Assembly (NCBI GenBank): GCA_003990765.1
Contig: RBNJ01000287.1
Coordinates: 1-34,048, forward strand
Direction: 5' to 3'
Length of the DNA stretch: 34,048 nt
Source of the DNA: Jimgerdemannia flammicorona
Lineage: Eukaryota
Shown here piece after piece: positions 3,810 through 34,048 of this stretch. The notes beneath the pieces are model-generated. The model ran no database searches, was not told the origin of the DNA, and saw nothing but the letters and a program-made list of their open reading frames with translations. The stretch's first letter is position 1, and each line of letters begins with the position of its first letter. The position numbers were made by a program, and so were the translations under genes.

Positions 3810-4409
3810 TGTGAGAGTTAATATGAACTAGTAATATGAATTAGAGAAATAGATATTTAATTATAGTACCTAAATCTAATTTATTCTTAAATATAATATA
3901 GTCTTACAAATAGTAGTTATATTTCACAAATATAGAAACTTTAACAGATATTAAAATATTTAAAGATATTAATGTATTTATAAATGTTAAAGTATTTATA
4001 GATATTAAAGTTTTGATAATTATTAATAATTTAGTAGATATTAAGAATTAATACTTATAAAGAATGATTTATAGGAAACAGCTATCTTATAACTAACAAA
4101 CTTGTATAAATATACCTAATATCTAAAGTGAATAAACCTAAGATCAAAATAGTTTAAAAAAAAGAAAAAATATAAGAACTAGTAAGTCTGTGAGCAAATA
4201 TACTTCAAACTTACCTATCTCTATATTCTGAAAACTCAGTAGAATCAAAGAAGATCAAGTTTTTAAAATATAGAAATCTGAAATACTTATATGTATAGTT
4301 ATATGTCTACTATATTATAACTTAGTATTTATTAGTTAGGAATTTAAGATGAATCTCTCACTTTTAAGCTAAATAATAAATAACTACTACCATCTGAATA
4401 ACTATATAA
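3810..4409 (+). mobile_element. Gypsy copy 0: degenerate 5' LTR (3810-4319) plus PBS/leader relic, interrupted by copy 1
   Basis: Begins TGTGA after ATAT. R/U5 (cttgtataaat...gtgaataaacctaagatcaaaatagttt) matches the other LTRs. 4320-4409 is a transition-mutated version of the leader at 22520-22610. Confidence 0.8.
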
Positions 4410-7400
4410 TGTAACATAGCAGACACTTACTCTTGAAAGTATATTGGATTTCTGTATCTTGAAAACTTGACTGTTCTGACTCTCACAGAGTCTCTTGAGT
4501 TGTAGGAGAGGGTGGGTGAGTTCAAAGTATATCTGCCTGCAGGCTTAAGTTCCTTTGCTATCTCTTTACTTTTGAACTATTTCAATCTAAGGTTTATTTA
4601 CTCTATGATACTAGATTATTTATACAAGTTTTGCTAACTATAAGGTAGCTAAGTAATGGCTCATTTCACAAGTGTTGAATCTTTTAACATCTGCTAAGAT
4701 TTTGCTAATCACAAAGATTCTAACATCTTCTAAATCTTTACAGACATTAAAGTTTCTGTGCTTTGCAAAATATGGCTGCTATTTTATAAGGCTAAGCTAT
4801 ATTAGGAATTAGATTCAAGTACCATGATCAAATGTCTAATTCCCCTAATTTATATTACTAATTCGGATCAGCCATCACATCTTCCTCCTGAATAGGTAAT
4901 TTATCTCAGAAGTATCCTATTCACTCAAATTTCCAGACTTCTACAATTTGTATTTTCTTATACTGTGTAATTTGTATCATTATATCCTTCCAGTGTTGTC
5001 TCTTATTATATCCAAAGTCTCCTGGGGTTATTTCTTGAAAATGGGCTAAGGCTAACTTGTTATCTTTGAATAACTTATACACTCTTTTTGCAATTGTGAT
5101 CTGAGTGTAGGAGAGCTGACATTCTCTGATTCAGTCTTCTTTTCCCATCTTTGGTCTTGAATTCAGTAGCTGTCCCAACTTGAAGTATTCCTGGAACTCA
5201 GTTTAGTTCTGGTAGGCCTTGAAATATAAGATTCGTGACAAGTATGTTTATACTATACTCTGGATGCTGTCAAAGGATTCTTCCATTGTTGGTGACTCTG
5301 TGGAATACTACTGTCTTTTGATGGCTCACTAGGCCATGCTAGTAATTCTGAGGGCAATAGTATTACTTCATTGACTGGTTATAATACTTCTTGAGTCAGT
5401 TTCAGTGGATGGTAGTTGGGATGATTGTGCCTGAGAGTTTTTGTAGCCAAAAGGTGGTTCCTTTTATATCTTGCACAAGGTAAGGTCTTTCCCACTTGGG
5501 CTCCAGTTTTCGTGACCATGAGACTTCTACCATATTCCAATATACCAGAACTTTGTCTCCTATCTTGATAATCTTCAGAGATTTGTGAGTTTTTTCTATA
5601 TTCTTCCATTGTAGTGCCTATGCCTTCATTATGTAATTCTCAGCCTTCTTAATTTGGTATAGTCTCCATATTTCTCTATCTATATGTTTCCATATAATAT
5701 CCCTATTGGATGATAGGGTTTCTTGAGAACTTTCTTCTCCAAACAACATTTCTCAAGAGGTAAAGTGGGTACTTTATGATCTGATATCTCAGAGAGCAGA
5801 TAATGCTATCGGCAGATAGTAATCTCAGCTTTCATAGTTATTACAGATCTTGGCAATAATATTCTTGAGGGTCTTATTGGTCCTTTCTACTTATCAGTTT
5901 TCTTGAGAGTAATAGGCTGTAGTCTGAATGTGCTGGATCTTGTACTTCTTGTAGAGGACCTCAAGAACTGGTTCACAAATTCTGTTCCTCTATCTATAGT
6001 TACTTGCATTGGGGTCTTGAACTGGCAGATGATTTCTTTGTAGAAGAAATCAGTAATTGACTATGTATTGGCTTCCTTGAGGGGTCCTGCTTCTATCTAT
6101 TTTGTAAAAAGATCTATGATGACAATAATATATCAGTTACCAGTCAAGATCAAGGGTAGAGGGCCAATTATATCTATTGCTATATGGGCGAATGGTACTG
6201 GTTCTATATGTACTGATCCTGGAGCTTGGTTTTGTTGGTCTTACTTCTGTTTCTGGCATTTGTCACAGATTTTGACAAATTGTCTGATATATTCTTCCAT
6301 TTCTGGCCACTATATCATTCTTCTTGCCTTGTCATATATATTTGTTCCTCCTAGATGGCCAAGTTCATGTACTGATTTCATTGCTTACTCCTTCTTATGT
6401 TCTGGTATGATAAGTAGTTTTCCTTTCTTTAGTATTTCTCCATTGGTTTCAAATTGTTTCTATGTTCTGTTGATAATCATTTGCATCCATTCTTTCAGAT
6501 GTTGGGGCATATTTTGCTGCTCCAGATATGTAATGATTCTATAGTAGAGCTCTTTATTCATAATTGATTTGTTGATTGGAGGTATTTTGAGGTATCCATG
6601 AGAGAGTATCTGCATTGGAATTTGTTCTTCCAGGGTAGTGTATAATAGTTACATCATAGGCTTGTAACTTCATTATCTATCTGGCATAGATTTCTTTGGG
6701 TTGTCCAGTTGTCAGTAGCTAGGTCAGAGCTGAGTGGTCTATCTGAATGGTGAAGTGTCTTCCAGCCAGATAGTAGTGGGACTTTTCCACAGCTCAGATG
6801 ATTGCGAGATATTCTAACTTATAGGATTCATATTCTTTTTCAGCTCCTCAGGTTCCTCAGCTTAGATATATAATGATATACTCTTTTTTGTCTTCCTTTT
6901 GAGCTAGAACTACTCCTAGTCTTTGTACACTTGCATCTGTCTGAAGAATAAATTCTTGAGTCCAATTGGGTCATCTGAGGATAGGTGCCTGGGTCAGTCT
7001 GACCTTGAGTTCATCAAATACTTTTTGTTGTCTATCTGTCTAGTTGAATTTAGTATCCTTCTTGTTGAGTTCATAGATTAGACCTGCAATATTGGAGAAT
7101 CCTCTGATAAATCTGCAATAGTAGAAGGCAAGTCCCATGAAGACTTGGGCTTCTGTGACAGTGGTGGGCCTTGGTATGCTGCTACTGCTTGTATTTTGAG
7201 GGGGTCCATATATATTCTATCTCGATTGATAACATGACCAAGATAGGAGATCTTGATTTCTACAAATTTGTATTCTTAGGCTTGATATACAGGTTATGCT
7301 TTCTCAGTCTTTCCATTATCTGCCATATATACTACAGGTGTTCCTCAGATGTCTTACTGTAGATGATTACATCATCAATATAGACCATCATCTATCTTCC

Positions 7401-9362: not shown

Positions 9363-9638
9363 TGTCCTGAGTAGTTCTTTGATGATACTGTCACTTGGAC
9401 AGTTGGATTTTCTGACCATCTCTTATTTGCTAGTTTGATTTTTAGCTGGCCTTTCTTTCTTCATCATATGTCAGACCTCTGTTGCATATTCTAAGCTCAC
9501 CTGGATTGGTATAGCAAGTCTTACAACAACTCTATCAGACCCCTTATTGAGTTAAGCACCTTTCACCAGTAACATTCAGGTGACACAAGACTTAGAGAGC
9601 ACTTTTTACAACGTTTTTGGTGTCTGATGACTAACAAC

Positions 9639-11556: not shown

Positions 11557-11587
11557 GTTGAAGTCTCTTCTACATTATCTACTCAAT

Positions 11588-14500
11588 ATGAACAGTATAA
11601 CTAGGATATTCTCATTGAACGTTAATGGGTTATGGGGGGCGGCTAGGAGGAAGTACATCTTTGGCTGGCTTCGTGGTCTGGATGCGGACCTCTTCTTGTT
11701 GTAGGATGTTTGGTATGATGCTGATGTAGATTGACAGGATTGGACTAGGGAATGGGGGAGTGCGGCAGTATGGCAGGGGAAAGTGGGTATTCTTGTCTAG
11801 AAAGGGATGGGGGACATTGGGGACATTGGACATTAGGGGTCACGGGTGGTGTGGGGAGTGTGGAAGAGGCCTGGATGGGGCTCGCTGATGGTTGGGTCTT
11901 GTTACTGCCCGGCTGAGAGAGGAGAGAGGGTAGATTGGATTCGCAGATTGAAAGAGACTGGTTCATTGAGAGAAGTTGGGTTTGACTGTATGGGGGGGGA
12001 CTTCAACATGGTGCAGGAAAAGGAGTTGGACAGAACTGATGGCGGGAGAGGCATGCGAGGTGAAAGTGGTGGGCTGGCGGACTGGTTGGAAATAGAAAGG
12101 TTGTGTTCGTTAGTGGACTCTGGGAGACATTTTTGGGCTGATCGGCGGGTGTATACCCATTGGGCAGCAGGACTGGGCTCTAGGATTGATTGGGTTCTAA
12201 CAGCAGAGTGTTGGGGAGCAGATGTCTGGATGGTGCTGGGAGTTGTATGGTGTCCATGGTCTGATCACTGGGGGTTGCTTGGAGGGGGGCGGTTTGGGGG
12301 AAATGAGGATGGGCCCAGACATTGGTGGCTAAATTCATCCTTGCTGGAGGATAGGGCATTGTGGGAGGGTTGGGAAACAGAGGTGATTGGAGATATCGGC
12401 AGGTGGCGGGATTAAGGACTGCCAATTGGGGATCGCTAGAGAAGGTTGAAGGTGAAGGCTCAGGGGTATTGGAGAGAGGCAGGGAAGGGAAAGAGTACTC
12501 AGCGAAGGCGGCAGGTGATGTGAGCCTCATGGCATTTGGCGGTGCTCATGGAGAAATGGGCAGGTGTGCTGGAGGATAGGGCCGAGACTAATTGGCATAT
12601 TGTGAGAATCCGGCAGGAGGTGGGGGAGCTCAAAGGGGTGCTACAGAGGGAGGAAGAGGAGTAGCTGCAGGGGATGGTGGCCCGCCTGCGATGGCAGGGG
12701 CTTGAGGATGGGGAGAGACCTACCAGGTTCTTGTCGTGGTTGTTGCAAGTGCGACAAACAAGGCAGCAGTGGGAGGGAGTTTTGGATGAAAATGACGAGC
12801 TGGTGGTGGGGACCCTGGCAATTTTGGGCCTATTGCAATCCCAGTGGGGGAACCTTTGGAGTGAGGATGAAGGAGGACTGGATGCTCTGGACATTGAAAG
12901 GCAGCTGCGGGATTGGCACCTGGACCCTGCCATGGGACTTGTGGCGCTGGGGGACCCGGTGAGCGGCGAGGAGATTTGTAAGGTGGTGGCCTCTACGAGT
13001 AAAGAGACAGCCCTGGGAGAGGATGGACTCCCCTGGGATTTTTGGAAGAAGATGACAGGGGTGCATGAGGTACTGGAGGAAATGATGGCTATGTGTAATG
13101 AAGTTCTTCAGTCTGGTGCCTGGATTGGGGGACAGCACTTGGGGCTGGTCTCCTTGCTATATAAGAACAAGGGCAGGAGGGAGGATTGGAAGAACTGGCA
13201 GCCGATCATGCTTCTGGACATGGACCGCAAACTGGTAACGAAGATCTTGGTATTGCAGTTGCAAGGGATTGCACAGCAGGAGCTTGGCTTAGAGCAACGT
13301 GAGTTTGTCAGTAGTCGGTTGATTCGAGATGAGATGGCCTGAGTTCATAGAGTAATTAAAGGTGCCTGGGCTACCGGAGTGGATGGCAGATTAGTATTTC
13401 TGGACCAGGAGAAGGCTTATGATAGAGTGCGGAGAGAATGGCTGGAGGGAGTGCTGAAGTGGATTGGTATCCCCCCAGGGTTCTGAGGTTCATTGATCAG
13501 CCTCTTGGAGGACAGTCAGGCAGTATTGGTCATCAATAGCCACTGGGGGGTGACCTTCCCCCTGGGTCGTGGGGTGCCACAAGGGGACCCCTTGTCACCC
13601 ATATTGTATGCTCTTTCCCTGGAGCCACTACTAGATAGGATTTGGCATAAGATTGGGGGTTTGGACATTTTAGGGGTGAACTAGAAGGTGGGGGCCTTCG
13701 CCGATGATATGGTGGTTGGATTGGGTTCCTTGGGGGATGTTGGCAAGTTGCAGAGGATGGTGGAATAGTACGAGCGGGGTTCTGGGGCCCAACTGAACTG
13801 GCACAAATGCGAGACGTTGGTGCTGGGTGCTGGAATTGTCGGTGGTGATGTTATTGGAAAGGTGGTTCCAGCTGGTGAACCAGTGTGCTACTTGGGGATC
13901 TACTTCTCGGTGTTCGGATATCTTCTTCCCTGAGCATGGTGGGACCATAAACTGCTGGAGTGGGGTGATGTCTTGATGTATTGGGGAGGCCGGCATATGT
14001 CCCTTGCTGGAAGAGTGATGGTGTTGAATGTGTACTGGATGACGAAGCTGTGGTATATTGGATATCATTTGGATTTTCCACCATGGGTGGTTACGAGGTT
14101 GCTGAAGATGGCGAGGTCATGGATTTGGGGAGGGCAGTGGAGCCAGGTTGGTTGGAAGGTGCTCACACTGCCCTTGGAGAGTGGTGGATTGGGCTTAGTG
14201 GACTTTACTAAGCAGCTTTTATGTCTGAGAGCCTGGTGGCTAAGGAGGGTGAGTGAGCTCAGAGGTTGGGAGTGGGTGCCACTCATGCAGAGGCTGTGGG
14301 AGGTTCGATACTCTCCACGTGGTGGCTCTGGTGACCTGCTTGCAATGGTGGCCATGGAAGGGAACTGGAGGATGCAGTTTACGGGCTTTTGGTGGGGAGC
14401 AGTAGATGGTGCTAAGAAAATTGGCCTTCGGTGGTGAGGTGATGAGGACGAGGAGGTTTGGGGACCGCAGATGTAGAGATGGGACAGGCTCCTATTGGGT

Positions 14501-15319
14501 GGTGCTCTGGTGGAGGACTTTCAGCTTGGCAAGGGTCTGGAGTGCCTGTGAGGCCTAGGTGGAGACCTGTGGCCTGAAGCCTGGCAGAGAGTTGGAATCA
14601 GGGAAGAGTGGGATTGGAATAGGCTCTAGCTTTGGAGCAAACAGGTGAGACAGTGGCTGCCCCCCAAGTTCTGGTTGGAATGATGGCAGATCCTACGGCG
14701 GAATGTGATGCTGAACTATCGGTCTGGTCACTTGGTAGATGGTGGGGTATTCAAGTGTGAGGATTGTTTCAATGTTAGTCAGGTGGGAGGGGTGGTACAA
14801 ATGCCTGAACATTGGCTTGGTGAGTGTGAGGTTTTGGGGGAGTTTTGGGGATGTATAAGGGACAGGTTAGGGTTGGGGGCTGGGGGAGAGGAGGGAGGGG
14901 GGAGATGGGGAGAGCTTCGCCAGTGATTAGTGGGTGGGGTTGGGGATGAATGGCTGACCCTTGGCTGGGCCTTGGCTATGTGGATTGGGTTGGTGGGGCA
15001 TTGAGTGCATGTATTTGAGGATGGGCATCGGGTTGGGGTTGGTGAAAAGGTGGCATGGTGGGAATGGTTGCTGTTGGACATTTTGAATAGCTGGTGGTGG
15101 GGTGGGGATATGGGTGGGGGGTACTACAGGGGTTTGGTGCAGTATATCTTCCAGAAGAGTAGTGGAAGGGTTCAGGTAGTGTGGGGTTGGGTGGTGCTTG
15201 GGCAGGGGGAGGTTGAGGGATGGGGGTTGGGCCCCTGGGGCATTGGTTGAGGGAGTGGGTGACATTATATTGTTAATACTATAGACTTCAGGAATAAAGG
15301 GCAGTTCAAGAGACTATAA
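11588..15319 (+). pseudogene. LINE ORF2: APE endonuclease + reverse transcriptase + C-terminal CCHC, disrupted
   Basis: APE motifs MNSITRIFSLNVNGL, GGDFN, SRIDW, WSDH. RT-region motifs WWLNSSLL, GEDGLP, NWQPIMLLDMDRKL, LDQEKAYDRV, GVPQGDPLSP, FADD, LNWHKC, YLG. L1/Tx1-type GRVMVLN and LPLESGGLGL. C-terminal CEDC...HWLGEC. Exact end uncertain. Confidence 0.9.
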
Positions 15320-16345
15320 AAAAAAAAAAAAAAAAAGACCCCTTAGTGAGTACTTTGTCATATATCTCATAAGTTCTATTATTGATAATTTCTAGTAATG
15401 GACCTTCTGGCTTAACTTCCTTAACTGATACTGGGACCTTCATCCATAGGTCTATAAGACTCACTTGCTCTATACCTTTCTTCAGTTATTTCTCCAGAAT
15501 TAGCTACTCTAAGAATGGGTGTCCTCTTTCCAGGCACTCATTTGATACATTACACCCAAAGACTGCTTTCTGTCTAGGAGTGCTAATTGTGTCCTCTTCT
15601 TTCCCCTTAGCTTATATATTCTGCCCTTATCTAGTACTATGGCTATTTTGGCCAACCCTACCCCTGCTCCTATAGAGATAAGTTATTTCATCATAGTGAT
15701 CTTCATAGGTATAGTCTTTTTGATAGTTCATATTCTACTTTCTAAGGAAATTCTGATTGTGATGAATAACTTGATTAGTTTACCAATGATAAATAGCAGA
15801 AGGAACTTCACATATACTCTCTTTATACTCTCCACAAAACAGCCTACTATGTTATAGATGTAATATATAATTCTGGTAGCTATCTTATAGTTGGATTTGG
15901 CCTGATTGAGATTATGAAGATACTTGAGTAATTGAGTGATCACTCCTTTTCTTTATTTCTTTCTTTTCTCTTATTTATCTTGGTTGGTTTCCTTATTATT
16001 GAGAGTATATTGAGTTATATATCTCTCATCAGTCATTTGGTTTTTGAGTGTTGATATTGTTTCTATAGTTGGTAATAAGAATTTGTATATTTTATCTTAG
16101 CTTCTTTTTTTCTTGCTTTTTATATTTATTATCTCTATATCTATAACAAAATAGTTTATCCAGCCCATCTATAGAGTGGTCATCTCTTTGGCCTTTATTT
16201 TATTCTTCTTAGCTAGTTGTTTACTTCACTGGTCTCTTTTTGTTTTACTCATCTTAGAAGTCTTAGCTATTTATTACTTAGATGTAGCTTATTTTCTCTA
16301 TAATGAATATATTCTTACTTACAGCCTAACCCTAACTCTAATCTA

Positions 16346-19129
16346 TAATTTTTTCTTTTGGATAGCCTTGGCTTTACTACCAAAGCTATTCCAAATTAAG
16401 AAAGCAGTCACTTTGATTAGCAAAGCCTCATTTCAGATATATATACTCATTTTTTATTAATTTTTATTATACAACAAAGATTACATAATCTGTATTTTAT
16501 AATTTTACAAATATAAACAAATATCCCAGCTTATTTTAGCAATGTCAGCCATCTCCTCTGTCATCAGTGATGATATATCACTACCTGTCTCTTTATAAAC
16601 TTCAGTATATCTTTTTACTATTTCAAGTATCATAGTATTGGCCTTCTTTCTCTTGGCTTTAGTGAGGGTTTCCTTATAGAAATGTGTAGATTGTACAGGG
16701 ATGTATAATCAATATTGGTAATTTATTTTTACTATATGATATTGAGAATAATGAAAAGATTATAATCTCTTCTAATTCTGATCATGATACTCAGTATATC
16801 TCTTACTCTTCTATGCTCTTGCTCTCACTCACAATAAGTATAGTCACCTGAATACTAGTTTGAGAGTAACTCTTATATGTATAGGCCCTTTAGTTGGCCC
16901 TGATTTAGTCATAGAGATGACTATGATAAGAATGTAAATCTCAGATCTACTGACTCAAGTAGCTGATTTGGCCAAAATCAATGCCCAACTAATGATATAG
17001 TTTGCTATACAATCTGTACCCATCACTCTCTAATCATCTGGTACTTCTTCAGAAAGAACCTCTATCATCTATCTATTACTGCTTTCCTCAAGTCTTCAGC
17101 ACCTCCTCCTACTAGTCCTGCTGTGAACATATGGTCAAAGGCCTAAAAATAAGCAGATGAGCAGACTACTAAAGATACTATATCTTTAGCTAGAGTGATA
17201 TCTTAGGAGGCAACTCCCATAATTACACTAATGGCACTGAAGTCTGTATACCTCAAATAGAGTATAGGTAAGATATTTCTAGTACTTCAGGCTATGCTCA
17301 TGGGTCCTAGTATCACTGGTCTATCTATATTCTCTTCTTCAATCCTCATGATCTACAAATTGTATGCCACTGTATCAAGAAGATTTCTATCAAAGATAGA
17401 ACTCAGGCCTACCCCAAGATGAAAAGAGCTGCTACTGTTGTAGCTCTTTTGTAAATAAGCTACAAGCTATTCTCTCATTTATCACTAACTAAGAAGGATA
17501 TATAGCTATAGCACATCTCTCTCTTGGGCTCTTATTTGCTTATAATACATATCACTGTTGCTTCTTATACTACTACTGAGTATCAGAGAATAATTGACTT
17601 TTATAAAGCTTAGCTCACAGTAAATAGCATAGAGCTCAATCTCAAGATATATAATTATATTGACCCAGCTAACTGTACTGTACTGATTGAGGATGAGCTA
17701 TATCTATAACCCTCCTCCTATATGTACCTGGGCATACTATATATAAAGAAAGGATTCGACTTTATTGATCTTGTATTATGTAATGCTATAAAGGCAGAAT
17801 GAACTCTTGGGTTCTATTATGCCTGATCACCAATAATCAGGCTAGATATCATATATATATATCATTATTAGGCCTTAGTTAGAGTATGGGCTTTCACTCT
17901 TATAAGCTTCCTATCTAACTACTACTATGAGACTTCAGGTGTTAAAATATTCTTAGCAGGTCTTCAATAATACTATTGCTTGGACAGTTGGGTTTTCTGA
18001 CTTTCTCTTACTTGGTAGTTCTATCTTTAGTCTTTCTTTATTCTTTTGTTGAACATTGGATCTTACTATTTATTCTAAGCTTATTTGGATTAGTATAGCA
18101 AGTCTGGCAACAACCTTATCACTCCTCTTAGTGAGTACTTTGTCACATATCTCCCAAGTTCTATAATTGACAAGTTCTAGCAATAGACCTCTTATATAGC
18201 TTGACTTCTTCAACTAGTACTGAGATCTTAGTTCTCAGGTCTATAAGACTTACTCACTTCACTTCTTCCTCTAGTCCTTTTTTTAGGATCAATTGCTATA
18301 GAAATGGGCCTTCTCCTTCCAGGCTCCCATTTAGTATATCACACTCTATAGTTACTTATAGTTAAGAAGAGCTAATTATGTCCTCTCCTTCCTCCCCAGC
18401 ATATGTTTTTACTTACCTGGCATTATGACAACTTTGGCCAACTCTGCCATTACTCTATAAAGATAAGTTTTATCATGCCTATCTCAATAGGTATAGTCTT
18501 TTTGACAGTTCATATTCTGCTTTCTAAAGTAATTCTGATTATAATGATCAGCTCAATTGATTTATCAGTGAGGAAGAGTAGAAGAAACTTTATGGCTACC
18601 CTCTTCATGCTCTTTATGAGATAGCCTATCATACAATAATGCTATAGGCAATTCTGGTAGCCATCTTGCTATTTGGTTCTGCTCTACTGAAATTACAAAA
18701 ATACTTAAGTGATTAAGTGATTATATATTTTCTTTATATTTTTTCCTTCTCCTCATTCACCTAGTTGGTTCTCTTGTTGTTGAGATTGTACTAAGTTATA
18801 TATCTCATGTTAGTCATGATATTTGGGTGTCAATATTATTTCTATAGTTAGTACTGAGCTTATATATATTTTATTTAGCTTCTCTTTTCATTGCTTTTCA
18901 TATTTATTATCTTTTTAACTATTTCAAAATGGTTTATCCAGCCCATCTATAAGGTGATCAGCTCTCTAAACTTTATTTTATTCTTCTTAGCTATTATTTA
19001 CTTCACTGGCCTATTTTTTGCTTTTTTCATCTTAGGAGTCTTTGCTGTTTATTGCTCTGATATATCTTATCTTCTCTATAATAAATAAACTCCTACTTGA
19101 AGCATAACCCTAACTGTAACCCTAACCCT
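16346..19129 (+). mobile_element. Telomere-repeat-tailed non-LTR element, unit B (probable 5' UTR + ORF1, internal deletion, RT C-half, 3' end)
   Basis: Candidate ORF1 from ATG 16542 (KCVDC; coiled-coil-like ISDLLTQVADLAKINAQL). RT remnant LFA-x-x near 17535, LTVNSIELNLK, and intact YMYLGI at 17719-17736. Tail cataaccctaactgtaaccctaaccct at 19103-19129. Confidence 0.72.
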
Positions 19130-21660
19130 CTATTACAATAATCTTTGGTCTCTGATACCATTTGTGGTTTTAAGTGAGCATACTACTCTATTCCTCTCAC
19201 TATCCTCCAATCTTACTCTCCTGCTCTCTCAGTATTTGAGAATGTGATTTTCTATTTTATTACTATCTTTGGCTAATCAAATATCTCCTTATACCTTAAT
19301 AACTCTGAGTACATCTTCTTCTGGCCCTTGGACTGCAGTCTTGGTTTGACCAACCTATAGATTAGAGGGTCATCTATAGCAACTCTCTCATAAATGCCTA
19401 CTGTACTGACTCCTTATATTTTCAGATCCTTTGAGTAATAGTAGGTAAGAAAGATACCCCCTATAGTCTGATGAAAGTCTTATTCTTTTTCTTCCAGATA
19501 TGTATGGTTTGGGGGCTTACTCTTTACTTCTAGAACTCTACCATCATTACTCCTATTTCCAAGGAGGAGGAATTATAACCAATTGATGATTTTTACCCTA
19601 TTGCTCTCACTGAAATATTTTGCTGACTCTTCAAATTATACTTAGAAGTTATATCAAATTCCAAAACAGTCTGACAGAAATGTTGTACTGCCAGAATGGC
19701 TTCTGAACCTGTTTCTTATACCTTTCCTATGTCTTATCCTCAGATAAGATATAGAATAAGAGGTAGGACTACTATATCTTTCTTAACCTTTAGTAGACAT
19801 ATGCCAAGTTCCCCTCAAGCTCATTCTTTCTTGACTTGAGGTATGAGGAGCCAATGTAGCCCTCCTTAGTATTATTTGTAGTCTCTTCAACTACTATTCC
19901 TATCAGATAGTTATTAATGGCCTTATCACCCCTCTGGTCTCCACTGAGTGCAGTCTCTGTCAGAGCTCTCTTTACTCTTCCTGGCTCTTCAAATTTTATT
20001 GACCTTCTCACTATCACTTTTGATAACTAGTTTAAGGAGTATGACTTCTCTATTAGGCTCTTCTTTACTAATAATATTGCTCTCACCCCTTGTACTGCCA
20101 CTGAGGGTCCAAGGATGATTGACTTTTATAAGAATTGACTTATGGTAAATAGTATAGAACTCAATCTCAAGAGTATAGTTATGTTAGCCCAGTCAACTGT
20201 ACTATATAGATTGGGGGTAAGCTATATCTGTAACCCCTCTCCTATGTATATCTGGGCATACTGTATACCAACAAAGAATTTGACTTTATTAGTTTTATAT
20301 TGCAAAATATAAAATATGATAAAGGCAGAATGAACTCTTGAGTTCTATTATACCTATAGTCCTCTCTAATTATTAATAGTCAAGCTGACCATCATATATT
20401 CTTTTATCAGACCTCAGCTATAATATGACCTCTCTCTTCTATGAGCTTCCTATCTGGCTAATACTATAAGACTTCAGATATTGAAGCATCCCAAGCAGAT
20501 CTTTGATGATACTATTGCTTAGATGGCTGGATTTTCCAGCTGACTCCTGTTTGATAGCTCAATTCTTGGTCTCTCTTCCTTTCTTTATCCCATATCAGAC
20601 CTTTGCTATATATTTCAAGCCCACCTGGATTGATGTAATAAGTCTGACAACAACTTCATCAATACTCTTAGTGAGCACTTTGTCACATACTCTCCAGATT
20701 CTATTATTAATAAGTTCTGGTGATAAAACTCTTAGCTTGACTTCTTTGACTAGTACTGAGATCTCTATTCTCAGATTTATAAAACTCACTCACTCTGCTC
20801 CTTTCTCCAGTCTTTCTTTTGAGATCAGTTGCTATAGAAATGAGTCTTTTCCTCTCAGGCTCTTATTCAGTATATTATTCTCCATAGCTAGTTATAGTTA
20901 TAGGAGGCTGATGGTATCCTCTCCTCCTCCCTCTGGCTTATATGCTCTACTTATCAGGCACTATGGCTATTTTGACCAATCCTGCCTCTGTCTCTGTAGA
21001 GATAAGTTTCATTATAACTATCTCTATAAGTATAGTCTTCTAATAGTTTCTATTAGACCTTCTGAGAATAATAGTCATAAACAACTTGACTGATTCACTA
21101 TAATGAGTGGTAGGATAAACTTTATATCTACCCTCTTCATACTCTTCATGAGATAACCTACTATATTATTATTGATATATATAAATCTGGTAACTTCCTT
21201 GGAGTTGGGTTTTGTTTAACCAAAATTATAAAGATACTCAGATGATCAAATGATTATAAATTTCTTTATATTTTTTTCTCCTTCTAATTATTTATCTTGG
21301 TTGATTTCTTTGTTATTGAGAGTGCATTGAATTATTCATCTCATATTAGTAATATGGTATTTAGTTGATAATACTAGTTCTATATTTAGTATTAGACTTA
21401 TGTAAATTTTATTTTAGCTCTTCTCTTCTTTACTTTTTGCATTTATTATTTATTATCTTTATGGCTGTGACAAAATGATTTATCCAGTCTAACTATAGAG
21501 TGATCACTTCTCTAGTTTTTATTTTGTTCTTCTTAGCTAGTTATTTACTTTACTAATCTCTTTTTATCTTTCTTATCATAGAGTCTTTGTCATTTGTTGC
21601 TCTAATATATCATTTCTTCTCTAGTGAATTAATTCTTACTTGAAGTCTATCCCTAACCCT
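19130..21660 (+). mobile_element. Telomere-repeat-tailed non-LTR element, unit C (5'-truncated; RT domain and C-terminus)
   Basis: Transition-eroded RT motifs in the correct order: NSTIITPISK 19534, DDFYPIALTE 19585, QNGF* 19692, IFLNL**TY 19776, SLCQSSLYS 19952 (GLRQGSP-like), FTNNI 20064 (FADDI after G>A), NSIELNLK 20148, YLGI ~20250. Plus-strand ORF 20503-21093 contains CLCRDKFH. Tail ctatccctaaccct at 21647-21660. Confidence 0.85.
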
Positions 21661-21722: not shown

Positions 21723-22247
21723 TCAAACCAAATTAATTGTTATCTCCCCTCTATTACTCTTGAAGATTTAGTAAGCTTTACTTTAAGAGTAGATAATATA
21801 TTATTATAATAAAAGATATATTAATAAATATTAATATAAAAGCTTTAATTTAGATATTTTCTTAGTTACTAAAGATTCCTCAATTTACTTGGGAATAGTT
21901 TAATATACTTAGTTGGTTGATTAATTCTACTCTTAATATTCTTTTTATTATAAATACTATGTTATATTTTAATATATATTTCTATATTCTTTTATATATT
22001 CTTAATATTAATTTATTTATTATTATATTATAATTGTATATTCCTTACATATTGTGATGGTATAGCCAGATTCAGAGAAGGAAATAGGGAATAGACACTT
22101 GATTGCACCCAGTCCCCAAAGTAGTATAACCACATAGTTAACAGTCCTCAATTTCGCAACTTGCTAAATATTTCACAAAGTGCAAGATTGAGCTCCCTGA
22201 TATAGTATAGCATTTCACAACTGGCAAAATATTTCGCAAAGTGTTAA

Positions 22248-22334
22248 ATGACTCATAACTTAGCCATGTAACCCAGTAACCATCTCATAGCTAGCAAACT
22301 TGTATAAATAACCCAGTATCTTCAAGTGAATAAA
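22248..22334 (+). promoter_or_regulatory. LTR regulatory core: ATGACTCAT (Gcn4/AP-1 consensus), TATAAATA box, AATAAA
   Basis: ATGACTCAT 22248-22256, TATAAATA ~22304, AATAAA 22329-22334. Same arrangement in the LTRs at 28394, 28940 and 33738. Confidence 0.55.
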
Positions 22335-22633
22335 CCTCAGATCAAAATAGTTTAAATCAAAGAGATAGCAAAGGAACTAGTAAGCCTGCAGGCAGATATA
22401 CCTTGAACTCACCCACCCTCCATTGCAACTTCAAGAGACTCTGTGAGAGTCAGAACAGTCAAGTTTTCAAGATACAGAAATCTGATGTACTTTCAAGAGT
22501 AAGCATCTGCTACATTACAACTTGGTGCCAATTGGCTGGTGATTCAAGATGAATCCCTCACTTTCAAGCTGAACAATGAACAACCGCCACCACCCGAACG
22601 ACCATACAAACTGAGCTGTAATACCCAGACAAG

Positions 22634-25600
22634 ATGGATATGAGACTACCAGTATTCCACAGATATACTTCAGATGAATCAATTATCACCTTCATTGACG
22701 ATTTCAAGTAGTATGCTGCTGTAATGACCCTGATAGCAGCACAGCAAGTAGCCCTCATGCCCTTTAGCCTACGAGGCCCTGCTAGAGTAGTATTCATAGC
22801 CGCAACCCATGCAGAAAATGATGCCGATAATATACTGATAGCACAGAAGACCTGGCTCCAAAATACATATTATACATATGAGATCAAGCAAGCTCTAAAG
22901 GATCAGCTCAATACAATATGCCAAGGAATGAGTAAGGATCCAAACACATTCCATACCAGAATTTGATATCAGATAATCCTGGCAGATTATGCTGCTGCTA
23001 TCCGAGATTAAGTAGCCAAGACAACCTTTATAAAAGGAGTCCACCCAGAAATAGCTATGGCTATCTGCTCATCACCAGTAATTCTGGATCTACCACAAAA
23101 GGTCACCTATGCTCAGCGATACTAGATAGCCAGACATCCACAAGACCATACAATGGAAAGGATCACAGGAGTCAGAATCAAGGCACCCAAGGCAACTAGT
23201 GTGATCCCTACCACAATGATCAATCAAAATACACCTCAGCCAAAAGCTACAAAGCAGCAAAAGAATAGTGACCCTATGGAGGAACTCACCAAAAGGTTTG
23301 CCAAAATGACTGCCCATCTGGGGGATATGGTAAAAGAAATTCGAGGAAGAGACCACCGCCCTGTCCAGAAGTTTGTTACTGCCTCAGACAAGAAGAAAGG
23401 CACCTGCTATACTTGCAGAGAAGAAGGCCACTACTCCTATGAATACATGAGCGAAACCAAGCACAAGGCTCAACCAAGCAATGCTATATGAAACAAGGAG
23501 TAGGCCAATATAATTACCTTCGAGGAGATTGGAGATTCTGATGAAGAAGAATGGGAGGCCTATCCTACTCAGACTACCAAGAAGGATGCTCGCAAAGAGT
23601 CCTACAAGAGACCACCAGGAAGACTCAAGAAGAACCCAGTGGAAAAGCAGATAGAAACTACCACAGAAAGCCAAGCCAAAGAGATGGACCAAGATACAGA
23701 GCTGGAGCAAGCAGTTCAAGATATCATCTGAGGAACCACTCTAGCCAGTGAAGGAGAAAAAGAAAAGAAGCTTCGCAAGACCAAGACCTTCAAGTATGAT
23801 ATCTTCAAGGATCTCAGCCAACAAAAGGTCAATGCAACCTTTGGTCAGCTTGCAGAAATCCTAACATTAAGACAGCAAATGAGGTTTGGACTTGTCGAAA
23901 TAACTAAGGAACAGGGATGGAAGATAACTGAGGCCAATAACGTTCAAGAGGACTCAGGAGAAGAAAGTGAGGACAATCACAAAACCTCTACACATGCAAC
24001 ATGCTAAATCGAAGATAGAATCTTTGAGACCATCATTGATATAGGAGCAGAAGGATGTCTCTTCAGCAAGAAGGCAGCAGACCACCTAGGTTGGGATGTA
24101 GAAGAAGCAACTAAGCTAGTGTTTGTCATAGCTGATGGCACAAGAGCCACACCTCTGGAAAAGATCTGAGATGTTCCCATCAAGATTGGAGGAGCAACCA
24201 TCCCAGTAGATGTAATTGTAACTAACGCCACCAACTATGACATCCTCATTAGCAATCAATGGCTTTACAAAGCCAAGGTAGTAATCGATCTCAATGCCCA
24301 GAAGATGCAGATCACCTACCAGGGACAGAAGATATGAATTCCCATTAATGTCAACAAAGGAGTCCTGTCTGATATGGAGGAAGAAGAGAGTGAGCAAGAG
24401 GAAGCTTATATGGTGACTACTCCAAAGAAAAAGAAAGTTAGATAGATGAGTGAAGAAGAATAGTGTAAGAAGATCACAGAAGATTATACCCCACAAGGAG
24501 TCTGTCCTCATGGGATCAAAATATACTACATGGAGTATGTCAATGATTGCTACCAGTGCACTATCGGAATCAGGAAGATCCAGGAAAGTAGGCAGAAAGC
24601 TCTCAAAAAACAGATCAAGGAAGAAGAGAAGGAGGAAGATGATGAACCACCAGCTCTCCTGGAGGACAGTGATGATGAAGAAGAAATCAAGGTCAAGATC
24701 CAAAAGATCCACCCTGATGCAGTCTTGCCAGAATACAAGTCAGAAAATGCAGCTGGAATGGACATTACTACAGTAGAAGAGACTGTACTGGAACTCCAGA
24801 CAACCACCCTACTTGCAACCGGATTGGAGATAACCATCCCAAAGGATCATGTTGGGATTCACAAGACAAGAAGCAGCCTGGCTAGAAGCGAAATTACAAT
24901 CGAAGGAGGAGTCATCGATTCAGACTACACTGGAGAAATTCTACTCATTACTAGGAATCACAATCCAACAATCTCATTTCCAGTCAAGAAGAAGGACCGA
25001 TTGGTGCAAATGTTGATCTTTCTGATCTTACAACCAAAGATCATAGAAGTTAAGAAGCTGGAGGAAACAAGAAGAGGAAAGAAAGGATTTGGATCCATAG
25101 GAAGAGGAGTATTCACCAATACCAAGATTACCGAACTCAAGTATAAGAAGGAGGAAAACACAAGCAAGCTCAGCTATATCATTGGAAATGAATTTCCATT
25201 TAAGAAAGAACTCAAGAAAATACTCCACGAATTCGAAGATGTCCTTGCCACAGATTTCAAGGATATCAAAGGAAAGACCCCATACTACTATCATGAAGTA
25301 GATACTGGAGACACTGAACCAATTTATCAGAAAGCAAGACCTGTCCCACCAGCCTACCGAGAATGGCTCAGAGAAGAAATCAAGCAGATGGAAGAAGCTG
25401 GTATCATTAAAGAAGCCAGCAGTCTCTGATCCTCACCTGTTGTACTGGCCCCAAAAAAAGGTAGCAAGTCTGGAGAATTTGCCCCAAGACTCTGTGTTGA
25501 CTACAGAAAACTCAACATGGTTACCAAGAAGGATCACCAACCCCTCATCAATGACATCCTCATAACACTGAGAGACAAAGTACAATACTACAGCATCTTG

Positions 25601-26746
25601 GACTTATACTCAGGATTCCACCAAATCAGACTCACAGATATGACAAGTGAAAAGTCAGCTTTCATCACTCCAGATGGAACCTATGTCTACCTATGAATGC
25701 CATTTGGAATGTATAATGCACCAGCAAGTTTCCAGTGAATGATGAATAAAATCTTCTGCTATGATATGGGAAGATGGATGATAGTCTACATCGATGATGT
25801 AATCATCTACAGTAAGATATCTGAGGAATATCTGCAGCATATATAGCAGATAATAGAGAGACTAAGACAAAATGACCTTTATATCAAACCCAAGAAGTAC
25901 AAGTTCACAGAAATCAAGATCTCCTATCTCGGCCACATCATCAAGTGAGATGGAACAAACATGGACCCCCTCAAGATACAAGCAGTTGTAGTATACCCAA
26001 GACACACTACTGTTATGGAAGCCCAAGCCTTCATGGGACTCGCCTCCTATTATCACAGATTTATTAAAGGATTTTCTAATATTGCGGGACCAATCTATGA
26101 ACTTAACAAGAAGGATATCAAGTTCCTGTGAACTGGCAAACAACAAAAAGCATTTGATGAACTCAAGGTCAGACTGACCCAGGCACCCATCCTCAGAAGA
26201 CCTGACTGGACTCTAGAATTCATCCTACAGACTGATGCAAGTGCACAAGAACTAGGAGCAGTCCTAGCTCAAAAGAAAGAAAAAGTGGAGTATGGCATCA
26301 CATATCTCAGCTGCGGAACCCGAGGAGCTGAAAAAGAATACGAATTCTACAAGTTGGAATGCCTCGCAGTCATCTGGGCTATAGAAAAGTTCCACTACTA
26401 CTTGGCTGGAAGACAATTCACCATCCAAACAGACCACTCAGCTCTCATCTGGCTACTGACAACTGGACAACCCAAAGGAATCTATGCCAGATGGATAATG
26501 AAGTTGCAAGCTTACGATGTAACTATCGTATACCACTCTGGAAGAACCAATGCTAATGCTGACACCCTCTCACAGATACTCTGAAAGACCCCACCCCTAC
26601 AAAATCATCATGAATAAGGAGCTCTACTATGGAATTATCACATATCTGGGATAGCGAAAGATGCCCCAATATCTGGAAGAATGGACATAAACGATTATTA
26701 ACAGAACATGGAAACAATTCAAAACTGACAGAGGAACACTGAAGAG

Positions 26747-26838
<92 letters not shown>

Positions 26839-27905
26839 CACTGAAGAGAGGAAAACTACTAGTCATACTAGAACACAAGAAGGAGCAAGCGATGAAATCA
26901 GTACATGAACTTGGCCATCTAGGAGGAATGAATACATATGACAAGACAAGGAGAACAATATGGTGGCCAGGGATAGAGGAAGATATTAGACAATTCGTCA
27001 AGACCTGTGACAAATGCCAGAAACAGAAATAAGACCAACAAAATCAAGTCTCAGGATCAGCACACATAGAACCAGTACTATTCGCCCACATTGCAATGGA
27101 TATAATCAGCCCCCTATCCTTGACCTTGGCTAGCAACTGATACATCATCATCATCATAGACCTCTTTACAAAATGGATAGAAGTAGAACCTCTTATGGAA
27201 GCCAATATACAGTCAATTACTGATTGCTTCCACAAGGAAATCATCTGCCAGTTCAAGACCCCAACACAAGTAACTACAGATAGAGGAACCGAATTTGTGA
27301 ACCAGTTCTTTGAAGTTCTCTACAAAAAGTACAAGATCCAGTATATTTGGACCACAGCATATTACCCTCAAGGAAATGGACAAGTAGAAAGGACCAACAA
27401 AACTCTCAAGAATATTATTGCCAAGATCTGCAATAACTATGAGAACTGGGATCACTATCTACCAATAGCATTATCTGCTCTCCGGGATATCTGATCACAA
27501 AGTACCCACTTTACCTCTTGAGAAATGCTGTTCAGAGAAGAATGTTCTCAGGGAACCTTGTCATCCAATAGAGATGCTGTATGGAAACATATGGACATAG
27601 AAATATGGAGACTATACTAAATCAGGAAGAAGGCTGAGGATTACATAACTAAGGTGCAGACATTATAACAGAGGAATGCAGAAAAGACCCACAAACCCTT
27701 GAAGATTATCAAGATAGGAGACAAAGTCCTGGTGTATCAGAATATGGTTGAAGCTTCATGGTCATGAAAACTGGAGCCCAAGTGGGAAGGACCTTATCTC
27801 ATGTAAGATATAAAAGGAACCACCTTTTGGCTATAAAAACCCTCAGGCACAATAATCACCACCACTATTCATTGAAACCGACTCAAGAAATATCATGGCC
27901 AGTAA
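22634..27905 (+). pseudogene. gag-pol polyprotein: Gag (CCHC), aspartic protease, dUTPase, RT, RNase H, integrase
   Basis: CYTCREEGHY knuckle; IIDIG; dUTPase motifs AAGMDI/TRSSLA/GVIDSDYTGEI/RRGKKGFGS (~24680-25105); YIDD 25787-25798; LQTDAS and TDHSAL; HLG...CDKCQ; TDRGTEF; GQVERTN; WEGPY. RT-RH-IN order is gypsy. Many transition-derived stops. Confidence 0.95.
26747..26832 (+). repeat. Solo 86-nt poly(A) insertion with ~16-bp target-site duplication inside integrase
   Basis: GAGGAACACTGAAGAG (26731-26746) and GAGAAACACTGAAGAG (26833-26848). Copies 1 and 3 carry a single copy of the site and no A-run. Confidence 0.88.
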
Positions 27906-28356
27906 CAAAAGTACTGTGATGGTACTCAAGATCACTAGTGCTGCCCAAAGAGCCATCGAGAGACAATGGTGCACCACTGAGCCTCCCACCATAGAGGAGT
28001 CTTATGACAGTATCCAAAGTATCATGCAGACTCATCTCTCTCAGATCTCACACTTCAAGGCCTATCAGCATTGGAACGAATTCCAAGAGTACTTCAAACT
28101 CAGCCAAGTACCCAACCAAGACCCAGAAATGACAAAAGAAAATTGGATCACAGAATACCAGCTCTCCTATTCCCAGATCACCATTGCCAAAAGAATCCAC
28201 AAGCTATTCTGAGAGGATGAATCAGCACTAGCCCACCTGCGAGGAGTGCCTCTCTCAGACTTCGACCGAGTCAAGTGACATCATTGGGAAACAGTGATAC
28301 AATAAATCATGCAATACAAGACCATACAGACCATTGAAGCTTGGGAGTTTGAATAG
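27895..28356 (+). pseudogene. ORF3 (153 codons, unknown function) between integrase and PPT, copy 2
   Basis: ATG overlaps the pol stop by 11 nt. Reads MASNKSTVMVLKITS...IAKRIHKLF...AWEFE-TAG with three transition-type internal stops. Confidence 0.85.
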
Positions 28357-29508
28357 ATGCTTAAGGGATGAGATCATCTATTCAGGAGGAAGTTGTGATG
28401 GTATAGCCAGATTCAGAAGAAGGAAATAGGGAATAGACACTTGATCGCACCTAGTCCCAAAAGTAGTATAGCCACATAGTTAACAGTCCTCGATTTTGCA
28501 ACTTGCTAAATATTTTGCAAAGTGCAAGATCGAGCTCCCTGATATAGTATAGTATTTTGCAACTGGCAAAATATTTTGCAAAGTGTTAAATGACTCATAA
28601 CTTAGCCATATAACCCAGTAACCATCTTATAGCTAGCAAACTTGTATAAATAACCCAGTATCTTCAAGTGAATAAACCTCAGATCGAAATAGTTCAAAGC
28701 AAAGAGATAGCAAAGGAACTAGTAAGCCTGCAGGCAGATACACCTCAAACTCACCCACACTCCCCTATAACTTCAAGAGACTCTGCGAGAGTCAGAACAG
28801 TCAAGTTTTCAAGATACAGAAATCCGATGTACTTTCAAGAGTAAGCATCCACTATGTTACAATATATTAAACTATTTTATTATATATATAAGTCCTCTGA
28901 TGATCTCTTCTATATATTCTTTTATTTTAAAAAGTATATTGTGATGGTATAGCTAGATTCAGAAGAAGGAAATAGGGAATAGAGACTTGATCGCACCCAG
29001 TCCCAAAGTAGTATAGCCACTTAGTTAATAGTTCTCAATTTCACAACTTACTAAATATTTCACAAAGTGCAAGATCAAGCTTCCCAATATAGTATAGCAT
29101 TTCGCAACTTGCTAAATATTTTGCAAAGTGTTAAATGACTCATAACTTAGCCACGTAACCCAGTAACCATCTCATAGCTAGCAAACTTGTATAAATAACC
29201 CAGTATCTTTGAGTGAATAAACCTCAGATCGAAATAGTTCAAAGCAAAGAGATAGCAAAGGAACTAGTAAGCCTGTGGGTAGATACACTTCGAACTCACC
29301 CACCCTCTCCTGCAATTTCAAGAGACTCTGTGAGAGTCAGAACAGTCAAGTCTTCAAGATACAGAAATCTGATGTACTTTCAAGAGTAAGTGTCCACTAC
29401 ATTACAACTTGGTGCCCATTGACTAGTGATTCAAGACAAATCCCTCACTTTCAAGCTGAACAATAAACAACTGCTACTACACAAACCAAGCCCCAATACC
29501 CAGACAAG

Positions 29509-32500: not shown

Positions 32501-33249
32501 TAGACCTTTTTACAAAATGGATAGAAGCAGGACCCCTTATGGAAGCCAATACACAGTCAATTGTCGATTTCTTCCACAAAGAAATCATCTCCCGGTTCAA
32601 GACCCCAATACAAGTAACTACAGATAGAGAAACAGAATTTGTGAATCAGTTCTCCGAAGTTCTCTACAAGAAGTACAAGATCTAGCATATTCAGACTATA
32701 GTATATCACCCTCAAGAAAACGGACAAGTAGAAAGGACCAACAAAACCCTCAAGAATGTTATTGCCAAGATCTGTGATAACTATGAGAACTGGGACCACT
32801 ATCTACCAATAGCATTATCTGCTCTCTGGGATATCCAATCACAAAGTACCCACTTTACCCCTCGAGAAATGCTGTTCGGAGAAGAATGTTCTCAGAGAAC
32901 CTTGTCATCTAATGAAGATGCTGTATGGAAACATATGGATATGGAAATACAGAGACTACACCAAATCAGGAAGAAGGCTGAGGATTACATAACTAAGGCG
33001 CAGACACTACAACAGAGGAATGCGGAAAAGACCCACAAACCCTTGGAGATTATCAAGATAGGAGACAAAGTCCTGGTATATCAGAATATGGTTGAAGCTT
33101 CATGGTTACAAAAACTGGAGCCCAAGTGGAAATGACCTTACCTTGTACAAGATATAAAAGGAACCACCTTTTGGCTATGAAAACCCTCAGGCACAATAAT
33201 CCCCACCACTATTTATTGTAACTGACTCAAGAAATATCATGATCAGTAA
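29509..33249 (+). pseudogene. gag-PR-dUTPase-integrase fused reading frame (RT/RH deleted), disrupted by stops
   Basis: ORFs starting at 29509, 30151, 31249 and 31879 and the TAA at 33247-33249 share one frame. CYTCGEEGHYSYEC; AIIDMG; dUTPase runs directly into integrase at ~32025. Confidence 0.9.
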
Positions 33250-33700
33250 CAAAAGTACTATGATGGCACTCAAGATCACTAATGCTGCCCAAAGAGCCAT
33301 CGAGAGACAATGGTGCACCACTGAGCCTCTGACCATAGAGGAGTCTTATAATAGTATCCAAAGCATCATGCAGACTCACCTCTCTCAGATCTCACACTTC
33401 AAGACCTATCAGCATCGAAACGAATTCCAAGAGTACTTCAAACTCAGCCAAGTACTTAACCAAGACCCAGAAATGACCAAAGAAAATTGGATCGCAGAAT
33501 GCCAGCTCTCCTATTCCCAGATCACTATTGCCAAAAGAATCCACAAGCTATTCCAAGAGGATGAATCAGCACTAGCCCACCTGCAAGGAGTGACTCCCTC
33601 AGACTTTGACTGAGTCAGGCAATACCATTGAGAAACAGTGATATAACAAATTGTGCAATATAAGACCATATAGACCATTGAAGCTTGGGAGTTTGAATAG
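33239..33700 (+). pseudogene. ORF3 (153 codons), copy 3
   Basis: 462-nt frame homologous to 27895-28356; open for 124 codons; ends AWEFE-TAG. Confidence 0.85.
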
Positions 33701-34048
33701 ATACTTTAGGGATGAGATCATCTATTCAGGAGGAAGTTGTGATGGTATAGCTAGATTCAGAAGAAGGAAATAGGGAATAGACACTAGATTGCACCCAGTC
33801 CCAAAGTGGTATAGCCACATAGTTAACAGTTCTCGATTTCACAACTTGCTAAATATTTCACAAAGTGCAAAATCAAGCTTCCCAATATAGTATAGCATTT
33901 CGCAACTTATTAAATATTTCACAAAGTGTTAAATGACTCATAACTTAGCCATGTAACCCAGTAACCATCTCATAGCTAGCAAACTTGTATAAATAACCCA
34001 GTATCTTCGAGTGAATAAACCTCAGATCGAAATAGTTCAAAGCAAAGA

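Follow-up and report, generated by a model that had tools for sequence, protein, structure and literature searches.

The 34,048-nucleotide (nt) stretch of Jimgerdemannia flammicorona DNA analysed here (contig RBNJ01000287.1, positions 1 to 34,048 of the forward strand, assembly GCA_003990765.1), referred to in its entirety as the window, holds three copies of one Ty3/gypsy-type long terminal repeat (LTR) retrotransposon, as revealed by repeat analysis together with Pfam searches of translations read through stop codons. Each copy carries the frame of a third ORF (ORF3) between the integrase gene and the polypurine tract, that is, at the env position, and this raises the question of whether ORF3 is or was a gene and, if so, what its product might have done and how it was expressed. 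The answer favoured here, with a probability of roughly 0.55, is that ORF3 is the relic of a genuine accessory gene of a Ty3/gypsy lineage which lacks a chromodomain and bears a dUTPase, and that this gene was translated by reinitiation from its own ATG to give a helical adaptor.

The three frames lie where the initial annotation, made from the sequence alone, had placed them (Table 1). All are 462 nt in length and they align without gaps, the first gap being found only past the stop codon, and the common terminus reported for them is present as AWEFE-stop in copies 2 and 3 and as VWKFE-stop in copy 1, which represents a diverged subfamily with 64% nucleotide identity to the other two. They had been described as open reading frames, and in this respect the description fails, for none of them is open: copies 2, 3 and 1 contain 3, 4 and 7 internal stops, respectively. 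All 14 of these stops are private to one copy, the other copies having sense codons at the same place, and most are a single transition away from CAA, CAG, CGA or TGG. The ORF3 copies of the window are dead relics of a gene, so that the original observation was real but overstated.

Intact relatives are present elsewhere. A protein search returned one intact homologue of 153 amino acids (aa; P0004, E-value=2.8e-71, 76% identity over the full length) together with seven partial ones, and a cluster look-up added P0045 and P0049, also of 153 aa each. The last of these is specified by an intact 462-nt ATG-to-stop ORF3 which lies between integrase and LTR at positions 5795–6256 of a metagenome contig (L001); this contig carries a near-complete element possessing an intact 1258-aa ORF for gag, protease (PR), dUTPase, reverse transcriptase (RT) and RNaseH, behind which integrase, interrupted by one stop, is read in the +1 frame. 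Further DNA copies, of either subfamily, were found in neither the viral nor the genome contigs, and the metagenome contigs yielded a single locus.

Comparison of the four DNA copies (three in the window and that of L001) bears out the proposal that the frame had been under coding selection. Copy 2 and L001 differ at 36, 30 and 81 sites in codon positions 1, 2 and 3 (chi-square p 1e-7), copy 1 differs from copies 2 and 3 at 46, 35 and 87, and an excess at the third position is seen in all five of the between-subfamily pairs (chi-square p 1e-6 to 1e-7). In these five pairs the Nei-Gojobori proportions of nonsynonymous (pN) and synonymous (pS) differences are 0.17–0.23 and 0.68–0.84, the synonymous sites being saturated, and the raw pN/pS ratio of ORF3 is 0.24–0.28. 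The corresponding ratio of rates (dN/dS) is 0.05–0.10 in the ORF3 frame wherever dS could be computed, against 0.7–1.7 in the two shifted frames. A dN/dS near 1 accompanied by frequent frameshifts was thus not seen, and no frameshift or indel of any kind occurs in the four copies. As a control, the C-terminal part of integrase gave pN/pS values of 0.14–0.17 where ORF3 gave 0.28, in comparisons of copies 2 and 3 against L001 (copy 1 was left out since a one-codon indel misaligns it in the ungapped comparison). ORF3 is constrained, yet its replacement sites have evolved at about twice the rate of those of integrase. That ORF3 was under purifying selection as a protein, and hence coding, is strongly supported.

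The changes which later destroyed the window copies are of another kind. Copies 2 and 3 differ from one another at 39 sites, of which 36 are transitions, spread evenly across the codon positions, and this points to decay after insertion. The derived changes are mainly C>T (72 in copy 2, 60 in copy 3) and G>A (38 and 50, respectively); the former fall at CpA in 45 of 72 and 30 of 60 cases, versus 42% of the CpN background, and the latter at TpG in 19 of 38 and 25 of 50, versus a background of 25%. This pattern, which resembles repeat-induced point mutation, plausibly fits a fungal host and does not prove one. Gypsy elements with a dUTPase have, in addition, been reported from fungi (PMC2864245), which likewise makes a fungal host plausible. 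Four public runs (soil metagenomes and one coded organism; two studies) have contigs with numerous short related pieces, 80–95% alike. At the sites of difference, T or A in the window mostly corresponds to C or G in these pieces (in X1, T>C 36 and A>G 23 compared with C>T 17 and G>A 17), in agreement with decay of the window copy, and the middle of ORF3 (28103–28250) is almost uncovered by them.

A profile search of 1.84 billion representatives returned seven proteins at E-values of 0.001 or below. Three belong to the window-type subfamily, one (P0014, E-value=2.9e-5) opened up a sister subfamily, and three are internally repeated proteins which were matched in five to six short stretches and were taken as spurious. 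The sister subfamily comprises 11 clusters of proteins of 152–169 aa; it shows 17–26% identity to the window-type ORF3, and the two are aligned by hhalign with a probability of 97.1% (E-value=5.5e-11, 109 columns). Their shared core reads IEE..., EFQ.Y(F/Y)..G...N and R(I/V)(H/Y).LF.D...AL.H..G(I/V).P.DF, the initiator methionine stands within a few columns of the same aligned position, and a C-terminal [DE]-x-W-[DE]-[FLV] motif is common to both. The window-type proteins end in EAWEFE and the sister proteins in DEWDL/V, or in one member DEFDI, preceded in the sister subfamily by an insert, EGEYPPFIDFG.... Net charges of the sister proteins range from -10 to -14, their acidic C-terminal part by itself contributing -9 to -15; this tail of about 45 residues, acidic and with W, F, L and I, fits the composition of an acidic activation domain. 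Judged by sequence, ORF3 appears to have no detectable relatives outside these two sister subfamilies.

The product had been expected to be soluble and probably helical, and to be neither a classical Env nor similar to a chromodomain, and on each count the analysis agrees. No transmembrane segment was found in P0004 or in P0021, a member of the sister subfamily, in which the maximal Kyte-Doolittle means over 19 residues (0.19 and 0.74, respectively) are far below the level of a membrane span. A retroviral or errantiviral Env is ruled out by the lack of such a segment, the size of 153 aa and the absence of an Env match in Pfam. The three ORF3 copies of the window gave no Pfam matches, Chromo included, at E-values up to 10, and the 22 family members gave sub-threshold ones only, to TBK1_ULD in six (best E-value=0.016) and to HTH_Tnp_Mu_2 in two (best E-value=0.031). 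The sole PDB match by sequence profile, to a prolyl-tRNA synthetase (E-value=0.29), was judged to be due to chance. In the ESM Atlas P0004 led to unnamed or unrelated clusters only, and P0021 to no usable named match; Foldseek found nothing at E-values of 0.001 or below in the PDB or among the BFVD viral models, and the best of 48,161 chains compared using VIA-align had a Z of 4.1, with none at 5 or above. Pfam, the PDB profile search, Foldseek and VIA-align therefore linked ORF3 to no described retroelement domain with confidence. From the 22-sequence alignment AlphaFold2 predicted eight helices, with a predicted local distance difference test score (pLDDT) of 76.9 and a predicted template modelling score of 0.72. 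The ORF3 product is accordingly predicted to be soluble and all-helical, with the fold provisional. Prediction of a complex between ORF3 and the C-terminal part of integrase (P0050) scored 0.00, which gives no verdict and was not used as evidence.

How such a protein could be made is suggested by the junctions between the reading frames. The ORF3 ATG is kept in three of the four DNA copies and is ATA, by a single G>A, in copy 1. Read in the +1 frame with respect to integrase, this codon precedes the integrase stop by 8 nt in copies 2 and 3, by 17 nt in copy 1 and by 41 nt in L001, and the corresponding overlaps of the two frames are 11 nt in copies 2 and 3, 20 nt in copy 1 and 44 nt in L001. 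The 11-nt overlap in the +1 frame initially ascribed to all three window copies therefore stands for copies 2 and 3 and falls for copy 1, with its ATA start and its 20 nt. Past the ATG the tail of the integrase frame varies (3, 6 or 14 further codons), and the ORF3 frame is conserved. A similar arrangement precedes integrase, whose initiator methionine codon (MNKELYY...) and the TAA that ends the gag-PR-dUTPase-RT-RNaseH ORF are 5 nt apart, the ATG coming first; the layout ATGAATAA, with its 8-nt overlap, is kept in all three copies that retain this junction (copy 2; copy 1, 6561–6554 on the minus strand; L001, 4612–4619), which are 70–79% identical overall. At both junctions a downstream start thus lies near an upstream stop, as in coupled translation. 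Because integrase begins in the +1 frame with respect to the preceding ORF, its synthesis calls for either a restart or a +1 shift, and since integrase is required for movement, whichever device operates at the RNaseH/integrase junction would be available at the integrase/ORF3 junction as well. The stop-start coupling put forward in the initial annotation is in this way indirectly supported by the same ATG-before-TAA layout at the earlier junction. What is most unusual about the element is this pair of +1 junctions with the ATG ahead of the stop.

In the preferred reading the gene, as it exists in the intact relatives, would specify a 153-aa soluble, all-helical protein, translated in the +1 frame from its own ATG 8–41 nt before the integrase stop. 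Ribosomes that have completed integrase would start again at this ATG, by coupled termination-reinitiation, and the same device would apparently be used at the RNaseH/integrase junction. The helical body would act as an adaptor and, less securely, the acidic and aromatic C-terminal peptide may dock a host factor; in the sister subfamily this docking peptide would have been expanded into the tail of about 45 residues which resembles an acidic activation domain. An adaptor is suggested by the position after integrase, the small soluble helical body, the conserved C-terminal peptide and the acidic tail of the sister proteins. As to what such an adaptor might do, we tentatively suggest that it works in the nucleus as a regulator and raises the expression of the element, whether by transactivation or by handling genomic RNA. 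Less probable is a part in targeting as an integrase cofactor, which fits the absence of a chromodomain; an antagonist of host silencing is less probable still, and the remaining weight falls to other functions. The roles in transactivation, targeting and anti-silencing, which the initial annotation had likewise put forward, are conjectures.

Several points weigh against the adaptor gene so described. Its function is argued from composition and position only; the window-type subfamily is neutral overall and has just a six-residue acidic and aromatic end (EAWEFE), and the sister subfamily is known from proteins alone. The fold is of moderate confidence, since the other four AlphaFold2 models scored 42–60 and a run with 11 sequences reached a pLDDT of 52.9. 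RNAalifold revealed no conserved RNA structure ahead of the ATG in the four copies (13 pairs, none compensatory, -5.3 kcal/mol), four sequences being too few to exclude one, and no RNA run is listed among the runs with the ORF3 stretch. The ORF3 frame is also open upstream of its ATG for 17 codons (27 in copy 1). Finally, considering the window alone, the stops in the three frames, terminal one included, number 4, 5 and 8, versus 5–13 in the other five frames.

Among the other explanations the best surviving one, possible and on balance unlikely, is that splicing yields a subgenomic mRNA from which ORF3, again a genuine accessory gene, is expressed, and that its overlap with integrase is incidental. 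ORFs in the env position are usually made in this way (gypsy env of Drosophila, CERV of Cer1). Some 50 nt before the ATG all four copies have, as noted by eye, an acceptor-like CCCTCAG/G, with no ATG between, but this stretch is also constrained by the coding of integrase. Fungal introns are usually short, and the lack of a listed RNA run counts here as well. Splicing would, moreover, ill explain why the RNaseH/integrase junction has a matching ATG before its TAA, integrase being normally part of Pol. In favour of splicing, CERV is made from a spliced mRNA, according to PMC10309623.

Somewhat less probable again is that ORF3 is a C-terminal extension of integrase, joined to it by a programmed +1 frameshift and acting as an integration-targeting module in place of the chromodomain, which related gypsy elements have at that point. 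This would suit the +1 position of ORF3, its overlap with the end of integrase, the 17–27 open codons upstream of the ATG and the absence of a chromodomain from the element, and a recoding or restart device is already needed given the +1 position of integrase with respect to RNaseH. It does not suit the ATG, which is found at a homologous position in two subfamilies with 17–26% identity and has a good initiation context, nor the position of the integrase stop, which is not conserved (overlaps of 11, 20 or 44 nt). In addition, no fused integrase-ORF3 protein scored among 214 longer candidates, which is weak evidence, and inspection by eye revealed none of the known +1 slippery heptamers.

That ORF3 is a known domain in strongly diverged form, for example a captured host gene or a DNA-binding domain of the helix-turn-helix type, and escaped the sequence and fold searches for this reason is improbable. 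Faint indications of this type do occur, namely the sub-threshold HTH_Tnp_Mu_2 matches already mentioned and, among 1115 chains with a Z of at least 2, the likewise sub-threshold DNA-binding domains of KorB (Z 3.6) and Spo0J (Z 3.4). Against them stand the absence of anything significant from Pfam, the PDB profile, Foldseek and VIA-align, and the outcome of the profile search, in which only four of the seven matches were accepted, all of them to the two ORF3 subfamilies. Lastly, the proposition that ORF3 is not a gene, and represents either a chance frame or RNA or DNA conserved for a cis-acting role beside the polypurine tract, may draw on the in-frame stops of all three window copies and on a count of stops barely lower than in other frames, but it is very improbable in view of the third-position excess, the pN/pS of 0.24–0.28 against about 1 in shifted frames, the intact 153-aa copies, the distant sister subfamily detected at the protein level and the private nature of the stops.

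The element to which ORF3 belongs is assigned to Ty3/gypsy (Metaviridae) on its flanking LTRs beginning with TG, a polypurine tract before the 3' LTR and the order PR-RT-RNaseH-integrase. Members of the LTR repeat family begin at 22052, 28394, 28939 and 33737. Copy 1 is on the minus strand at about 4500–10000; copy 3 starts at 28939, extends to the end of the window and, relative to copy 2, has an internal deletion of about 1.5 kb in the RT-RNaseH region. Both copy 2 and L001 contain RVP_2, RVT_1 and RT_RNaseH domains followed by Integrase_H2C2 and rve, with a zf-CCHC match in the gag of L001, and in both a dUTPase (PF00692) is located between PR and RVT_1 (E-value=4.4e-23 and 5.3e-28, respectively), as in dUTPase-bearing gypsy elements of the PosPlaTy3-5 type. 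Chromo was matched neither in the three forward frames of copy 2 (E-values up to 0.01) nor in L001 (up to 0.001), and integrase stops immediately after ...HRNRLK(K/R)YHG with the chromodomain absent; membership of the chromoviruses was therefore rejected. L001 opens with 39 nt from the end of another ORF3 (its final 12 codons, KTIQTIEAWEFE-stop), after which come LTR and gag; this may reflect either tandem elements sharing an LTR or a circularly permuted contig in which the LTRs were collapsed by the assembler.

Table 1. Features of the retrotransposon copies in the window (positions from the first nucleotide of the window)
Feature	Position	Strand	Remarks
ORF3 frame, copy 2	27895..28356	+	153 codons and TAG; internal stops at codons 106, 128, 137
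ORF3 frame, copy 3	33239..33700	+	153 codons and TAG; internal stops at codons 125, 131, 136, 145
ORF3 frame, copy 1	4921..5382	-	7 internal stops (codons 5, 18, 19, 25, 45, 60, 84); start mutated to ATA
ORF3 ATG/integrase TAA overlap, copy 2	27895..27905	+	11 nt, ORF3 in +1; A at -3, G at +4
RNaseH/integrase junction ATGAATAA	26610..26617	+	integrase ATG in +1, 8-nt overlap with upstream TAA
Integrase frame, copy 2	26610..27905	+	H2C2 zinc finger, rve core, GPY/F-like C-terminus ending HxNRLKKYHGQ-stop; chromodomain absent
Ty3/gypsy element, copy 2	22052..28756	+	gag, PR, dUTPase, RT and RNaseH in one frame; integrase +1; ORF3 a further +1
5' LTR, copy 2	22052..22414	+	repeat-supported part
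Polypurine tract AGGAGGAAG	28384..28392	+	immediately 5' of the 3' LTR, 28 nt past the ORF3 stop; conserved in four copies
3' LTR, copy 2	28394..28756	+	repeat-supported part; begins TGTGATGG
3' LTR, copy 3	33737..34036	+	reaches the window end

The integrase frame of copy 2 is broken by stops and by an A-rich insertion of 87 nt. This run (26747–26833), which reads as poly-lysine and lies in the N-terminal region of integrase, is found in copy 2 only and is bordered on both sides by the short word AACACTGAAGAG, so that it resembles a small insertion with target duplication. Copies 2 and 3 nearly abut in the region 28394–29480, the 3' LTR of the former and the 5' LTR of the latter standing almost head to tail (starts at 28394 and 28939), and the short AT-rich flank which precedes each 5' LTR ends in ...ATAT. 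Just past the 3' end of copy 1 there is a 1-kb block with 10% GC (3001–4000), which looks like extreme C-to-T decay of repeats. Adjoining the 5' part of the same copy, and in sharp contrast with its AT-rich surroundings, is a GC-rich stretch (about 10000–15320; 52–57% GC) with a strong G skew (GC skew up to +0.54) and a terminal poly-A run, which carries an RT of the non-LTR type, as in long interspersed nuclear elements (RVT_1, E-value=1.6e-23). The region from 15408 to 21582 is made up of three AT-rich tandem units of about 2.5–2.8 kb each (repeat families D3, D4, D9 and D10; 67–77% identity) which gave no Pfam match in any frame. A Pfam scan of the remainder of the window revealed no host genes, the non-LTR RT being the only match.

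Several known systems invite comparison with ORF3. The chromodomain of chromoviruses occupies the same place, directly after the GPY/F region of integrase, and ORF3 may plausibly play an analogous part in the choice of integration site; it lacks, however, the chromodomain signature, is predicted to be all-helical and has a separate frame with its own ATG. The foamy-virus protein Tas/Bel1 is a small accessory transactivator encoded 3' of pol and possesses an acidic activation domain. ORF3 is likewise small and 3' of pol, and its sister subfamily has an acidic tail with W, F, L and I, but no DNA-binding domain was recognised in ORF3, the window-type proteins are neutral overall, and the two have no relation in sequence or fold. 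Examples of coupled termination-reinitiation are the UAAUG overlap of the non-LTR element SART1 and the overlaps found in fungal totiviruses or hypoviruses. The two successive junctions described here are like these in having a downstream ATG in another frame from a few to about 40 nt from the stop; they differ in that no motif complementary to rRNA and no RNA structure has been demonstrated, and in that the ATG of L001 lies 41 nt before the stop.

Additional ORFs have been recorded in retrotransposons of this general type. Fungal Gypsy elements with an "add. ORF" of no assigned function appear in the legend to Fig. 3 of Novikova et al. (2010; PMC2864245), and PosPlaTy3-5 has a dUTPase between PR and RT in the same paper. 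Like the element of the window, PosPlaTy3-5 is thus of the fungal Ty3/gypsy type with a dUTPase in this position, and an additional ORF is recorded for some fungal elements; the paper deals with elements that bear a chromodomain, which the window element does not, and their "add. ORF" was compared with ORF3 by description only (PMC2864245). The CERV protein of Cer1, a Ty3/gypsy element of C. elegans, is regulatory and serves nuclear export of the genomic RNA, according to PMC10309623. In that account CERV resembles ORF3 in its env position, in not being an Env, in having no homologues beyond a narrow group of hosts and in diverging fast; it differs in being a 517-aa protein of three domains made from a 5-exon spliced mRNA that shares the gag exons, whereas ORF3 has 153 aa in a single frame with its own ATG (PMC10309623). 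No relative of CERV was among the seven matches of the profile search, CERV not having been compared directly.

The LTR retrotransposons of bdelloid rotifers which contain a dUTPase (PR-dut-RT-RH-IN) have captured family-specific ORF3s, as reported by Rodriguez et al. (2017; PMC5408684). These again are dUTPase lineages, and their ORF3 types include non-enzymatic coiled-coil ones; in the same account, the elements differ from the present one in being of animals and in having ORF3s that are Env-like, GDSL, DEDDy, transmembrane or coiled-coil and constitute separate expression units (PMC5408684). No similarity between them and ORF3 was detected in any search run. Full-text searches of the literature brought up no account of the ORF3 protein family; the supplementary element lists of PMC2864245, which were outside that search, may bear on its novelty. 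Extra ORFs at the env position are already a recognised class, and ORF3 is a new orphan family within this class.

Taken to its furthest, the preferred reading of a reinitiated accessory gene would make this a tricistronic element with two successive termination-reinitiations at +1 ATG-before-TAA overlaps, whose third protein is a transactivator or anti-silencing adaptor of new fold acting via an acidic-tryptophan peptide. This combination is doubtful; if true, it would represent a fungal counterpart of the accessory regulators of retroviruses. ORF3 is in any event tractable, being short and clearly selected, with intact copies in existence and a candidate docking motif brought out by the sister subfamily. 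The paired +1 overlaps could reveal an unusual expression of Pol products in an LTR retrotransposon, and if ORF3 proves to be a regulator or a targeting cofactor, it would show how fungal elements without a chromodomain control their expression or integration.

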